A stretch of DNA of 64,000 nucleotides from a phage. The stretch lies in sequence record NC_100372.1. One strand, 5' to 3'. The notes beneath the pieces were generated by a model. That model was not told the DNA's origin. It searched no databases and saw nothing but the letters and a program-made list of their open reading frames with translations. The position numbers and the translations under genes were made by a program. This document shows positions 2,920-9,215 of this stretch, piece after piece (position 1 is the first letter of the stretch; each line of letters starts with the position of its first letter).

Positions 2920-4104
2920 TCAAGCTTTAGCTAAAATGGCGCTAAACTCTTCACCAAACTCTTTTACAATCTTCATCAGGTTTGGGTATGCTTTGATCAG
3001 CTGAGCAACGATCTTGTCCCTGCCTTTACCAATAAGTAAGGCATTTCCTAAGGCGTTAGGTTTCATCATCGCCATAAAGACTGAGAATACAAAGTCTCGG
3101 TTCTCATCCTTGAAATTTTCCCAAAGGAAATCAAGGAAGTTTGCCACACAGCTGACAAGATCTTCGTCGGAGATACTTGCATTTTCCATCATATTACGAA
3201 TAGCGATACAACCTTCTGACCCCAGAATCCACAAGATGTCTGGCTGCTTAGGACCTACATATTCTTTGCAGCCTCCTGCCATAATCCGACCGATTTCTGG
3301 CAAGTTTCGTTTCTTGGTGTGGTAGGTCCAAATTTCTACCGCTGCAGTGTGACCAATTGCACCTTGTAGAAGGACACGGGCCATAGCGTCAGAAATAATA
3401 CCGCTGTCAAAATCGTGCAGGATGTCAGATGCAGCAACCCAAGATCGCGGTGTGGCAAAAGATGGACAATTAATCTCAGCCATGGCCTCATAATTATCAA
3501 TGGCTGATGGGACTCTTTTCAGATATCCAATTACAGAGGAGTGAACCCCATTAAGGAATGCGTAGTCCTCAATAAACACCTCTGCATTGCTTGTAACTTC
3601 TACAATAATAAAGCGGTTAGCTAGAGGAGCTTCGAGCGCCGAAAGAACAGCACCATCTGTAGCACGGTTACCTGCAGCTACAAAAACAGAACCCTTAGGA
3701 AATGCATAGGTACCGCACTTGTGGTCGAGCATAATTTGCATTGCAACCTTCTGCAGGTAGTTATCCGCATGAGTAAGCTCGTCTAGAAAGATAATTCCGC
3801 TCCAGTCCGGATCTGCAGGCCAAAATTCTGGAATTGCAAACACTGTACGTGTAGTCCCATCCGACTCCACAGGGATAGGCAGTCCAGATAAGTCAGCAGG
3901 ATCTTTATCTGACAACCGCACGTCAACCAGGTTGTCATCTCGCTCACCGAACATATTATCAGCAATCTGCTTCATCACCTGGCTCTTCCCCACACCCATC
4001 GGTCCTAAAATCAGGACAGATCGATTATGACGCTGGGCAAATTGAATAATAGCTGGCAACTCGCGGACAGTGATTTGACCACTTTCGAATACGTTTCTTG
4101 ACAT
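2920..4104 (-). CDS. MoxR/CobS-like AAA+ ATPase
   Basis: 394 aa. Walker A GPMGVGKS, Walker B-like IIFLDELT; size and layout fit MoxR/CobS-family AAA+ proteins. Confidence 0.65.
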   Translation of the reverse strand: MSRNVFESGQITVRELPAIIQFAQRHNRSVLILGPMGVGKSQVMKQIADNMFGERDDNLVDVRLSDKDPADLSGLPIPVESDGTTRTVFAIPEFWPADPDWSGIIFLDELTHADNYLQKVAMQIMLDHKCGTYAFPKGSVFVAAGNRATDGAVLSALEAPLANRFIIVEVTSNAEVFIEDYAFLNGVHSSVIGYLKRVPSAIDNYEAMAEINCPSFATPRSWVAASDILHDFDSGIISDAMARVLLQGAIGHTAAVEIWTYHTKKRNLPEIGRIMAGGCKEYVGPKQPDILWILGSEGCIAIRNMMENASISDEDLVSCVANFLDFLWENFKDENRDFVFSVFMAMMKPNALGNALLIGKGRDKIVAQLIKAYPNLMKIVKEFGEEFSAILAKA

Positions 4105-5426: not shown

Positions 5427-5705
5427 TTAGGCAACTGTCATTTTACATTCTTGAAATTTTAGCACAAGACGGTGATTGTGTCTAGTGTCTAAAAAGATTT
5501 TTTCAACCATCAGGCACACGGTATAACCGTCTGTCTTGTTGACAACAAAATCCCCAGGGTGAGGGAGAATGTCCCCAGGATTGGGGAAACATAACCCGCT
5601 CAAGAAGGCATCATCGGTGGTGGACTTAATGGATTTCCACACACTATCTGCCTGAACATTCTCACCAACATAATATACACTACCACATGACTTCATCATA
5701 GTCAA
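5427..5705 (-). CDS. hypothetical protein
   Basis: 92 aa ORF; 4-nt overlap with upstream gene. Confidence 0.4.
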   Translation of the reverse strand: MTMMKSCGSVYYVGENVQADSVWKSIKSTTDDAFLSGLCFPNPGDILPHPGDFVVNKTDGYTVCLMVEKIFLDTRHNHRLVLKFQECKMTVA

Positions 5706-6601
5706 ATCTCCGCGTAAATTAAACTGGAATCAGTATACTTCTTTAGTGGGTAAATATCCTGTCCATAGATGCCGTCATTAAACACCTCATCTACCCAAAG
5801 GCTACACTTATATCCCATCATCTCTAAAACACCCATCTCTTCTTCGGTAAACTTATCACCGCTCTTGCAAGATGTCAACACCTCATTCTGTACTCTTGCT
5901 ACCTCGAAGCGATTATTGGCAATATCGCTATTGGCGATCAAATACTCACCTAAAGGGTGTGCGGCATTAAAGATGCACAGTGGGCGGTTGACGTAATAGT
6001 CTCCAGGTGTATAAAAATTATTGAGGTCTTTCACTAGGACATTCTTATCAGTCACTTCATTTATAACATCATGCATATCGCACATCTTTATATGTTTGAG
6101 GATTCCATCCCCCATCACAAAATAAAAACTTGCTGAGACACTCTCGGCATAGATCTTACTAGATCCGTTGTAGTTGTATTTTACTCGGATGCTAACGGGG
6201 GTTTTTCCTGTCGCGTTAGCCATCATCCAAAGAAATGGCAGCTCATACTTCTCCTCTGAGGAAACAAAAGGTGAAGTTGCCAGAGATCGGAAACCTCCAG
6301 AGAAGTTGAAAGTTACAGAACCGCTCCGGCGGTATGATACTGCGTATTCCACTTTTATATCAACATATCCGTTGGAGTAAGTATGCCCTCCATTATCAAG
6401 GTATGTCCACTTATCTGACCCAGATACCAACCTCCGCTCAATTACCTTCATCACTACAGGGATTAGCGGATTAGTACAAACCGATTTTGAAGTAGCTTTA
6501 TCATCCAAAGCCTCGTAAATTGCAGAAAGGATATCACCTGCTGAGAGATTGGTTGTGATATCTTGTTTCCACCTGGTGCTAAAACTGTTAAGATTTGCCA
6601 T
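5702..6601 (-). CDS. hypothetical protein
   Basis: 299 aa ORF, first gene after the minus-strand early promoter; SD AGGAG about 9 nt upstream of ATG. Confidence 0.5.
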   Translation of the reverse strand: MANLNSFSTRWKQDITTNLSAGDILSAIYEALDDKATSKSVCTNPLIPVVMKVIERRLVSGSDKWTYLDNGGHTYSNGYVDIKVEYAVSYRRSGSVTFNFSGGFRSLATSPFVSSEEKYELPFLWMMANATGKTPVSIRVKYNYNGSSKIYAESVSASFYFVMGDGILKHIKMCDMHDVINEVTDKNVLVKDLNNFYTPGDYYVNRPLCIFNAAHPLGEYLIANSDIANNRFEVARVQNEVLTSCKSGDKFTEEEMGVLEMMGYKCSLWVDEVFNDGIYGQDIYPLKKYTDSSLIYAEI

Positions 6602-6641
6602 GAGTAAGTGCTCCTATGTTAGTTTTCTTTTGAATGGGTGC

Positions 6642-6670
6642 ACTATATCTGGGATTTAGAGTAAAGTCAA
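6642..6670 (-). promoter_or_regulatory. sigma70-like promoter, minus strand (TTGACT-17-TATAGT)
   Basis: On minus strand: -35 TTGACT (plus 6665-6670), 17-nt spacer, -10 TATAGT (plus 6642-6647); positioned upstream of 5702..6601. Confidence 0.5.
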
Positions 6671-6683
6671 CACGTTTTTGAGG

Positions 6684-6712
6684 TTGACATCTACCCAGGC
6701 GCTTGGTAAGAT
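6684..6712 (+). promoter_or_regulatory. sigma70-like promoter, plus strand (TTGACA-17-TAAGAT)
   Basis: -35 TTGACA 6684-6689, 17-nt spacer, -10 TAAGAT 6707-6712; back-to-back with the minus-strand promoter. Confidence 0.5.
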
Positions 6713-6743
6713 TTCTCCACCTACAGAGAACAAGAGACAACTC

Positions 6744-7721
6744 ATGAATCTTGAAAAATATTATACACCAGAAGAGTTAGAGCGCTTGCTCAAAAAATAC
6801 AGACGCAAACAGAATAACGCACGGAAACGGGATATAGAGTTCAACCTGTCATGGGAAGAATATCTCCTATTTGGTAAAAAACTTTTAGGAGAGGGAGTAT
6901 GCGACTATACCCTTATACCTTTCGACATGCACACAGATGAAAACGGACTGGGAAATCCTTTCTACCCATCTCTAGAGCGGATAGATGATGAAGGTCCTTA
7001 CGCAATTGATAATTGTTGTGTGGTAGGATTGAGGTGCAACTCTCTGAAGGACTGTCTGGTAGATAAAAAGACTGCAGTCTTGATTAAAGACGAAACTGAT
7101 CGAAAAATTGTCCAGCAGATGATGCTCCACCTGAGCGAAGAGCGTATGGAGAAATTGAAAGGTGATTATACTTTTGAAGATTTCATCTTGCAATATGGAA
7201 CGGAAGAGGATAAACTAGCACTCTTTGACGAAGAAGAGGAGGAAGATATGCTACCTATGTCTAAAGTTACTTATCGTGCACCCAAGAAGCACATTTCTGA
7301 CATTGTAAACGAACCTATCACAGAAGAGATTGAAGAAATGACGCAACAGGTACATGAAGAGGAAAAAGAGACTCAGGAGGTCGAAGAGGGGCTTACAGAA
7401 GAGGTTCCTGCACTACCTGATGATGTTGAGATTGCCAAAGCTTACACCTTCTATTGTCAAACGTTCTACGATGTAGGCATGAAAGTTGATCTGTCGTTCA
7501 GCCAATTTAAGAGCACATACATTCGAAAATGTTGTGCTTTAACTGGTGAGCGTCTCGGGGCCGGACTTAAACCACTATTAGTTACCGACTGGAACAAAGG
7601 TTTCACCAAAGGTAACTTCATGGTGGTATCTCCAATCATGGAAAAAGCTATGACAGACCTTATGAAGACCACCCGCATGACAATGACCGAGTTGGCTGGT
7701 ATTTTCAAGCACGTTAAATAA
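6744..7721 (+). CDS. protein with two degenerate HNH-like (HNH_3-type) modules separated by an acidic linker
   Basis: Track ORF 6678..7721 starts at TTG inside the promoter; ATG at 6744 (MNLEKYY) is the likely start. Module 1: ARKRDIEFNLSWEEY ... CDYTL ... SLERIDDEGPYAIDNCCVVGLRCNSLK; module 2: CALTGERL ... VTDWNKGFTKGNFMVVSPIMEKA. The His of the S-I-D-H-I-D consensus is Arg or absent. Confidence 0.45.
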   Translation: MNLEKYYTPEELERLLKKYRRKQNNARKRDIEFNLSWEEYLLFGKKLLGEGVCDYTLIPFDMHTDENGLGNPFYPSLERIDDEGPYAIDNCCVVGLRCNSLKDCLVDKKTAVLIKDETDRKIVQQMMLHLSEERMEKLKGDYTFEDFILQYGTEEDKLALFDEEEEEDMLPMSKVTYRAPKKHISDIVNEPITEEIEEMTQQVHEEEKETQEVEEGLTEEVPALPDDVEIAKAYTFYCQTFYDVGMKVDLSFSQFKSTYIRKCCALTGERLGAGLKPLLVTDWNKGFTKGNFMVVSPIMEKAMTDLMKTTRMTMTELAGIFKHVK

Positions 7722-7725
7722 TGAC

Positions 7726-7742
7726 AGGGGCCATTGGCCCCT
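7726..7742 (+). other. GC palindrome / stem-loop (GGGGCC-ATT-GGCCCC)
   Basis: Perfect 6-bp GC stem between 6744..7721 and 7755..9215; no clean U-tract follows. Near-identical to the stem of the terminator at 13437-13452. Confidence 0.35.
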
Positions 7743-7754
7743 TCTGGAGTTTTA

Positions 7755-9215
7755 ATGGATAGCAGAAGTTCAGAAATCATTACCGCACAAAAAGATGATG
7801 CCTTGCGAATGCTGCAGGCCGCTCGCATGTATCTTCTTGAAAAGCTGCCGTTTTATGGCACACTGTTGTCAGGGTTGCAGTTCGTAGAAAACCACACATG
7901 GTGCTCCACTATGGCAACAGACCATAAACGCATCTACTACAGCCCTGAGTTCATTATGGGGTTGGCAGATGAGCGTAAAACCATTCTTAAAGCATCTCTG
8001 ACTGACAAGCAGTTTGAGATGGCTGAGGTTTTCTATTCCCCAAAATCTGTGAAAGAGGTGGCATTTCTTCTGTCACATGAGGTGGGGCATATTATCTGTG
8101 ATCATCTGGTCCGTGGTAAAAGCTTTGAGCCGGAACTGTTCAATATTGCTTGTGATCACGTTATCAACACAGGTCTTGTGGTTGACTTTAGCAAGCCTCC
8201 TTGTGTTTTCTTCCCGAAGGGGAAAAGCACTGAGTTCGTAAAAGGTAAGCCTTTTGGCTTCTTAGCTAATTGCTACTGCGACATGAAGTTTCATGGATGG
8301 ATTGCTGAGAACGTCTATGCAGTTCTTGATAAACAAAGAGATCAGAATGGCGGTAAAAGTAAGAACGGTAAAGGTGAGAACTCCCAAGGAGATAAACGAC
8401 AAACCGATGATCACATGAGCGGGAACGGTGGCACTAGTGATGATCTTGGAAAGGCTATGGGGTATGATCAGCCGCAACCAGTAATCAGTCAATCTGATAA
8501 AGATCAGGCCATGCAGGATTCTGGTGACATGTTGGAAGCAGCAATGCAAGCTTCAGGAGGTCGTTGCCCCGAGGCGGTGCGCGAGTTTGTCAAAAACAGA
8601 GGCAAGCCTGTAATCAATTATATAGATATTATTAAGCAACGTATGTTATCTAAAAGAAAGGCTGAGTTAACCTACAGAAAACCTGGTCGCCGATCTGGGT
8701 CTTTGACCACCACAATGCGAAAAGTTGGAGCTATAAACAAGAATCAACACGTTATTGTTCCTGGTCGTAATCCGGAAAACACTATAGATATTGTAGTGGC
8801 TTTAGACGTTTCTGGGTCGATCTCACAAAGAACTTTAAAGAAAATGTTCAATGAGATCACCGGGTTGTGCAATCTGTATAAAGAGTTTAAGGTTACGATG
8901 TTCTGTTGGTCAACCGAGGTTGGAGAGGTTAAAGTATACACTCGCGGTAACATCGATGAGATGATCAACTATGAGGTCCACTCAACATGGGGCACAACAG
9001 CCGCCTGCGTGTTCGAGTATCTAGATGCTAACATACCGAATGCAAAAGATGTCATCGTCCTTACCGACCTCTACTTTGAGCATAACTTTGAACAAAAGGC
9101 TGTTGACAACAAGTGGAAAAAGTACGATACTTTATGGGTTCTCACCGAAGGGTATAATAAAAATTATATCCCGAGCTTTGGGAAAACTGTGGAATTAATC
9201 GAGTACGCTAAGTAA
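7755..9215 (+). CDS. vWA-domain protein with N-terminal HExxH metallopeptidase-like domain
   Basis: Track start 7734 is TTG; ATG at 7755 has SD GGAG 5 nt upstream. HEVGH motif (LLSHEVGHIICDH) in N-terminal half; MIDAS-like DxSGS (IVVALDVSGSIS) in C-terminal half; Gly/Asp/Ser-rich linker between. Confidence 0.6.
   Translation: MDSRSSEIITAQKDDALRMLQAARMYLLEKLPFYGTLLSGLQFVENHTWCSTMATDHKRIYYSPEFIMGLADERKTILKASLTDKQFEMAEVFYSPKSVKEVAFLLSHEVGHIICDHLVRGKSFEPELFNIACDHVINTGLVVDFSKPPCVFFPKGKSTEFVKGKPFGFLANCYCDMKFHGWIAENVYAVLDKQRDQNGGKSKNGKGENSQGDKRQTDDHMSGNGGTSDDLGKAMGYDQPQPVISQSDKDQAMQDSGDMLEAAMQASGGRCPEAVREFVKNRGKPVINYIDIIKQRMLSKRKAELTYRKPGRRSGSLTTTMRKVGAINKNQHVIVPGRNPENTIDIVVALDVSGSISQRTLKKMFNEITGLCNLYKEFKVTMFCWSTEVGEVKVYTRGNIDEMINYEVHSTWGTTAACVFEYLDANIPNAKDVIVLTDLYFEHNFEQKAVDNKWKKYDTLWVLTEGYNKNYIPSFGKTVELIEYAK

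Follow-up and report, generated by a model that had tools for sequence, protein, structure and literature searches.

The window analysed here, a 64,000-nucleotide stretch of phage DNA (sequence record NC_100372.1), carries on its plus strand an open reading frame (ORF) at 6744-7721 that encodes 325 amino acids followed by a stop codon. The surrounding DNA is that of a Vequintavirus (rV5-like) coliphage genome. With positions 6000-9000 as query, megablast returned 118 phage records, 116 of them aligned over at least 80% of the query, and the closest was Escherichia phage vB_EcoM-ECP26 at 97% identity. The locus as such is 97% identical to Vequintavirus genomes, and the gene is the homolog of rV5 gp11, a protein of the Srd family. 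As the preliminary description of this DNA had stated, it is the first gene behind the plus-strand promoter, a predicted sigma-70-like site at 6684-6712 (TTGACA, 17 nt, TG-extended TAAGAT; 10 of 12 positions matching) located 32 nt upstream of the ATG at 6744. This ATG is the likely start codon, because a start at the TTG at 6678 would overlap the promoter-like site and because GenBank relatives annotate the ATG. The encoded protein consists of an N module (6783-7079, residues 14-112), a helical extension (7080-7229, about residues 113-162), an acidic linker (7230-7409, about residues 163-222) and a C module (7416-7718, residues 225-325). By alignment, the first of the two modules carries an active-site constellation that works without histidine in the restriction enzyme PacI, whereas the second appears to be a dead copy of the same fold.

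In an AlphaFold2 model built with a 65-sequence alignment (mean predicted local distance difference test, pLDDT, 88) the protein forms two compact domains, 1-167 and 223-325, separated by a linker in which residues 177-205 have pLDDT values below 50. Each module combines a beta-beta-alpha unit with short helices and a long helix at its N-terminus. In the N module this beta-beta-alpha core (6966-7064, residues 75-107; pLDDT 94-98) is modelled as a strand at 75-79 ending in E78-R79, a loop at 80-90 containing Y86, a strand at 91-95 and a helix at 96-107 containing N99 and K102; that of the C module has strands at 278-280 and 292-294 and a helix at 297-310. A Foldseek comparison with viral models in BFVD returned phage proteins labelled "anti-sigma factor" or Srd together with HNH proteins of giant viruses, and PacI itself is classified within the giant-virus group of His-Me fingers (PMC5714182). 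As modelled and aligned, both modules are PacI-like His-Me finger (HNH-like) folds. The extension behind the N module is predicted to contain four helices (117-129, 132-138, 144-151 and 154-167). The linker begins with EEEEED, is predicted to be disordered (pLDDT 45-57) and varies among homologs in both length and sequence; over residues 161-224 it contains 22 D/E against 5 K/R and has an isoelectric point of 4.1. The C module is basic, with an isoelectric point of 9.1. The earlier picture of two HNH-like modules in tandem, joined by an acidic poly-Glu linker, is borne out by these data, and the motifs quoted for it are all present (NARKRDIEFNLSWEEY at residues 25-40, SLERIDDEG at 76-84, DEEEEEDML at 162-170 and VTDWNKGF at 280-287).

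The relationship between the two halves is visible only through profiles and through T4 Srd; compared directly by BLASTP, the N half and the C half give no significant match (E 12). Word-indexed homolog searches were likewise shallow (23 and 28 matches), and the family became visible only by an exhaustive profile search, which gave 5164 matches at E <=0.001 and 236 at E <=1e-10. From the best 150 of these 5164 matches, 112 N modules and 112 C modules of two-module homologs were taken. Aligned with each other by hhalign, the two sets match over 74 columns with 97.6% probability (E 3e-12), and independently made module alignments reproduce the homology (97.7%, E 2e-12). T4 Srd bridges the halves, since BLASTP aligns the N module with its residues 4-85 (E 6e-8) and the C module with its residues 30-80 (E 5e-4), and a hidden Markov model (HMM) of the C module also matches the N modules of many homologs. 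From the profile-profile match, the T4 Srd bridge and these cross-matches the two halves are judged to be an internal duplication that is both real and old. Modelled alone, the C module has the same top structural match as the full-length model. Module number in homologs, which the preliminary description had proposed to check, was surveyed in 156 non-redundant representatives: the N-C arrangement accounts for 140, in five (P0164, P0165, P0167, P0169 and P0170) two N modules stand in tandem and both motifs are essentially intact, and N-only and C-only representatives are mostly fragments. The metagenomic representative P0133 (852 amino acids) has four tandem N-type modules; a Cys-rich segment precedes every one of them, and S-L-E-R...Y...N...N is intact in all four.

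Searched against all PDB sequences, a profile built from 40 N modules recovers PacI (E 8.6e-5), and the motifs of the two fall in line, E78-R79-I-D81...G-x-Y86...N90...N99..K102 aligning with PacI D92-R93-S-D95...G-Y100...N104...N113..K116. PacI is described as active although it has no catalytic His, a tyrosine in the inter-strand loop taking the place of that residue, and as holding a single metal by Asp and Asn (PMC5714182, PMC4081073). In the phage protein Arg79 occupies the canonical HNH His position and Y86 aligns with PacI Y100; E78 and N99 align with the PacI metal ligands D92 and N113. These residues are strongly conserved among the 112 homologs, whose identity to the query is no more than about 20-35%. 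R79, Y86 and N90 are present in all 112 and K102 in 110, and position 78 is E in 99 and D in 13. N99 is found in 108 homologs and is His in the other four. Histidine is the classical alternative to asparagine as a metal ligand, so that the only change seen at this position fits the substitution expected of a metal ligand. K22, R29, C53 and Y55 are further conserved residues of the module, beside the aligned set. On this alignment the N module holds a complete PacI-type (tyrosine-type) constellation, consisting of acidic and Asn metal ligands, Arg at the His position and the loop Tyr, and is probably a working metal/phosphate site.

The C module is different. Its positions equivalent to the catalytic set are V280, F287, E300 and M303, and the corresponding columns in homologs hold V/I, V/I/F, Q/G/R/E and L/M, respectively. 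Equivalents of E78, R79, Y86, N99 and K102 are thus missing, and no tyrosine of the PacI type is found at either 280 or 287. What is kept is C264, the conserved Asp D282 and the structural Asn N291. Judged by these residues, the C module is a catalytically dead duplicate that retains the fold-determining positions. It serves as an internal control, because a module that kept the fold without the catalytic set indicates that upkeep of the fold alone does not need those residues. Their loss there, set against their invariance in the N module, suggests that selection maintains a working metal/phosphate site in the N module. The canonical His is indeed missing in both modules, with Arg79 in the first and Val280 in the second, as had been pointed out before. 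The conclusion drawn from this, that both modules are degenerate and probably inactive, holds for the second module, where the catalytic set is lost, but fails for the first, because a mechanism without His is known from PacI and the residues that it uses are conserved there. The preliminary description had also reasoned that conserved catalytic His and Asn would mark an ordinary HNH endonuclease; there is no such His, but an equivalent and known catalytic set is conserved.

Family profiles give little access to this protein. No Pfam family matches the full-length sequence even at E 10, so that the HNH_3-type pattern assigned to it earlier was not recovered; a Pfam search with 40 N modules gave a single match, to Endonuclease_7 (E 0.14), and scans of NCBIfam and PADLOC gave no meaningful match. 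A phmmer search of PDB sequences with the full-length protein returned noise only (Arl5 and antibody chains, E about 1), and the N-module profile was needed to reach PacI. With Arg79 and Val280 at the His position and no family match, the protein is not a canonical HNH nuclease of the Pfam HNH, HNH_3 or Endonuclease_7 type. Nor does it contain the conserved Cys pair that had been suggested. One cysteine per module is conserved (C53 in 111 and C264 in 105 of 112 homologs), while C91, C92, C98 and C263 are variable, and the idea of a zinc-finger HNH was rejected.

The assignment of the gene to the Srd family was made previously. In 2013 PSI-BLAST led to rV5 gp11 being called a probable homolog of T4 Srd, and a part as anti-sigma factor in the early-to-late switch was speculated on; the "anti-sigma factor" annotation in current use goes back to T4 Srd (PMC3606486). 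In relatives the gene is variously labelled "anti-sigma factor", "HNH endonuclease", "anti-termination" or "hypothetical". T4 Srd (NP_049634) matches the present protein by BLASTP at E 6e-8, and the Srd families of PHROG match as well (PHROG 1400, E 6e-11; PHROG 4592, E 8e-13). T4 Srd scores 59 bits against the N-module HMM and 25 bits against the C-module HMM over the same residues. Its residues 4-158 match positions 7-169 of phrog_3118, the PHROG to which the present family belongs, and the similarity thus runs through the helical segment. The match stops near Srd residue 158, so the two proteins are not collinear over the whole of T4 Srd, and the C-module HMM has no match in Srd residues 93-248.

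A full-length homolog is present in 207 of 248 records and occurs across several phage groups, down to 22% identity. A conserved placing as first gene after a divergent promoter was considered for distant homologs and rejected, as it is not seen in Klebsiella phage FBKp34 or Aeromonas phage phiA009. The homolog P0023 (22% identity), at 6001-6939 of a 105-kb metagenomic contig (L003), does stand first where the genes of that contig change from the minus to the plus strand. Sixteen records named "Campylobacter phage" (MG0656xx, host given as Campylobacter jejuni) all match the locus, at least two of them at 90-93% identity, and their attribution to that host seems doubtful.

The reading that we favour, with somewhat less than even confidence, is that the gene represents, in Vequintavirus, the T4 Srd family of proteins for early host takeover, that the protein has one live PacI-type site and that it acts in the decay of host nucleic acid. 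According to this proposal the protein would be made from the first early promoter. Its N module would bind a metal and a phosphodiester and would probably cleave, the loop Tyr acting as base or nucleophile. The two modules could form an intramolecular pseudo-dimer with one functional phosphodiester-binding or cleaving site, which is proposed because PacI is a homodimer and because N-N tandems with both sites intact exist, and the basic, non-catalytic C module may help to hold a substrate or partner. The protein would then speed the destruction of host nucleic acid, most probably of host mRNA via the RNase E pathway as for T4 Srd, either by cutting RNA directly or by presenting substrate to RNase E. 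By analogy with T4 Srd and RNase E, the most likely role of such a protein would be early host shut-off via nucleic-acid decay.

Several points weigh against this reading. The two Cys4 zinc sites of PacI are absent, and of the aligned cysteines only C53 is kept, so that the fold must hold stably without zinc. The relative orientation of the modules differs among predicted homolog structures, with root-mean-square deviations of about 18-37 A in full-length superpositions, and nothing supports a fixed pseudo-dimer. Only about 155 residues are shared with T4 Srd, which has no C module. Papers citing the work of Qi et al. describe T4 Srd as stimulating RNase E and not as being itself a nuclease (PMC4980113, PMC7430671, PMC13232886).

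This last description leads to the main rival, a purely non-catalytic adaptor or activator whose partner in the host is RNase E, through its catalytic half, or some other protein, with the former active-site residues now serving protein or RNA binding. What is published on T4 Srd, that it stimulates RNase E through binding the N-terminal half, speaks for such an adaptor, as do the loss of the PacI zinc sites and the existence of inactive His-Me fingers used in binding, e.g. those of Smad MH1 and Enpp (PMC5714182). However, these known inactive domains have neither the His nor the substitute Tyr (PMC5714182), while in the phage family the positions of the Tyr, the Arg, the Lys and the two metal ligands hardly vary, if at all, even between very divergent sequences, and N99 changes to His as a metal ligand would. 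The dead C module, moreover, shows how relaxed selection at those positions looks. We regard an adaptor as possible, with clearly less weight than a live site. A DNA-directed nuclease or nickase, in which the single live site would cut or nick host or competitor DNA early and without RNase E, appears improbable. It would agree with the activity of the closest solved relative, PacI, a DNA restriction endonuclease, and one live plus one dead module would suggest a nickase; the N-module profile also matches the DNA-cutting HNH domain of Cas9 in PDB weakly (E 0.025-0.18, above the default of 0.001). Yet the only experimentally studied member of the family, T4 Srd, is reported in the accounts of it cited here to affect mRNA stability, no DNA-recognition domain is evident, and the phage genome would need a form of self-protection, of which none is apparent.

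The labels carried by many records would favour quite another function. An inactive nuclease fold acting as anti-sigma factor, sigma-70 decoy or DNA-binding transcription regulator, close to what the preliminary description had entertained, is in keeping with the many records that say "anti-sigma factor", with the PHROG wording "decoy of host sigma70" and with the speculation in the rV5 paper on a part in the early-to-late switch (PMC3606486); the canonical His is missing, and mimicry of DNA or of sigma region 1.1 by the acidic linker is conceivable. No sigma-70 Pfam domain matches either the phage protein or T4 Srd, however, and neither sequence nor fold lends support to the idea, which we consider very unlikely. 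Least credible of all, and close to negligible, is a free-standing homing endonuclease, i.e. a selfish mobile gene, in spite of the label "HNH endonuclease" in several genomes and in phrog_3118. The gene stands at the same locus in the 116 of 118 related genomes, is found at full length in several phage groups even at 22% identity, is a conserved, putatively early first gene and interrupts no other gene, and the Pfam scan shows no HNH_3, NUMOD or AP2-type DNA-binding domain. The preliminary description had rightly set this possibility aside.

The proposal of a live PacI-type site can be extended to the family as a whole. Srd-family proteins, T4 Srd included, might be tyrosine-type His-Me finger nucleases that make the initial cuts in host RNA, with RNase E stimulation as a downstream consequence; we think this fairly unlikely. 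His-Me finger enzymes leave 5'-phosphate ends, and such ends are the preferred entry substrate of RNase E. Besides T4 Srd, very few proteins are known whose target is the catalytic half of RNase E. If Srd were an RNA-cutting nuclease, the live-plus-dead tandem would represent a dimeric DNA enzyme turned into a specialised cutter of single strands. The searchable literature contained no description of a PacI-type active site in the Srd family or of a live-plus-dead tandem, and a search for a link between Srd and PacI returned nothing relevant. The gene and its assignment to Srd are already known, and the PacI-type site and the live-plus-dead tandem are the new part. They turn a vague label, "anti-sigma factor / HNH endonuclease", into a precise hypothesis about a nuclease-type site, and they correct annotations that propagate, the "anti-sigma factor" label being without sequence support. 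The family numbers thousands of members, its constellation is invariant or almost so, the dead duplicate supplies a natural control, and the mechanism of Srd-type host shut-off is made directly testable. Furthermore, the PacI group of His-Me fingers, for which 88 sequences, mostly from giant viruses, were counted in 2017, appears from these profile matches to extend to a large family in tailed phages for which Pfam has no model.

The promoter of the Srd-family gene is the plus-strand half of a divergent pair. The partner promoter, at 6642-6670 on the minus strand (TTGACT, 17 nt, TATAGT), faces the leftward gene 5702-6601, and the pair as a whole (6642-6712) agrees with the bidirectional promoters predicted between genes 10 and 11 of rV5 (PMC3606486). 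Relatives label the leftward gene 5702-6601 (-), the first on its side, "putative alpha 1-3 fucosyltransferase"; neither Pfam nor NCBIfam gives a match to it, and its PHROG is one of unknown function. Five nucleotides past the stop codon of the Srd-family gene, and ahead of the next gene, lies a perfect GC-rich hairpin at 7726-7742 (GGGGCC-ATT-GGCCCC). It is a possible terminator or attenuator within a putative early operon, and relatives annotate terminators in the same interval (Murica record). The next gene, 7767-9215 (+), encodes a putative DUF2201_N metallopeptidase (Pfam E 1e-28) with a VWA-like domain (3e-11). It is labelled "HNH endonuclease" by PHROG 1314 and "anti-sigma factor" by some GenBank relatives, labels that look as if carried over from the neighbouring Srd-family gene. 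ORF 2920-4104 (-) corresponds to the gene annotated as a MoxR ATPase in phage ECP26 and lies about 3.7 kb from the VWA/metallopeptidase gene, on the opposite strand and across the divergent promoter. MoxR ATPases usually work with VWA proteins.

Among known systems the nearest solved one is PacI (PDB 3ldy/3m7k; His-Me finger group 20, Jablonska et al. 2017), with which the phage protein shares 11-15% identity. PacI is a homodimeric bacterial restriction enzyme of 142 amino acids with two live sites, whereas the phage protein, at 325 amino acids, would combine one live and one dead module. Where PacI carries two Cys4 zinc sites with a structural role, the phage family keeps a single Cys. Single-module phage and bacterial proteins (phrog_3322, phrog_1035) consist of the same module with the motif S-[LI]-[DE]-R-[IV]-D...G-Y-x-K-G-N and are often labelled "HNH endonuclease" or "endonuclease". 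All members examined in which the motif pattern was found have Arg at the His position. They differ from the present protein in having one module and, often, other N-terminal extensions. One of them, P0197, retains CxxC...CxxC zinc ligands and so bridges to PacI.

Inactive members of the His-Me finger class offer a parallel to the C module. Like Smad MH1 and the nuclease-like domain of Enpp, the C module keeps the fold but has neither the His nor the substitute Tyr, and it presumably serves in binding (PMC5714182). These domains differ from the C module in that they have no sequence relationship to it, and in that the C module is an internal duplicate fused to what is predicted to be a live one. 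T4 Srd shares the N-terminal module and its motif (E64-R65-F-D67...Y72...N76...N85..R88), at about 24% identity over the shared part, and the helical segment after the module can be aligned; its orthologs carry the N-module motif wherever the motif search found one. It differs in having one module only, with no acidic linker and no dead C module, and its last ~90 residues have no counterpart in the phage protein. Each gene belongs to a large virulent coliphage, and the present one, like that of T4, would be expressed early. According to papers citing Qi et al. 2015, T4 Srd binds RNase E in its N-terminal, catalytic half and speeds host mRNA decay (PMC4980113, PMC7430671, PMC13232886).
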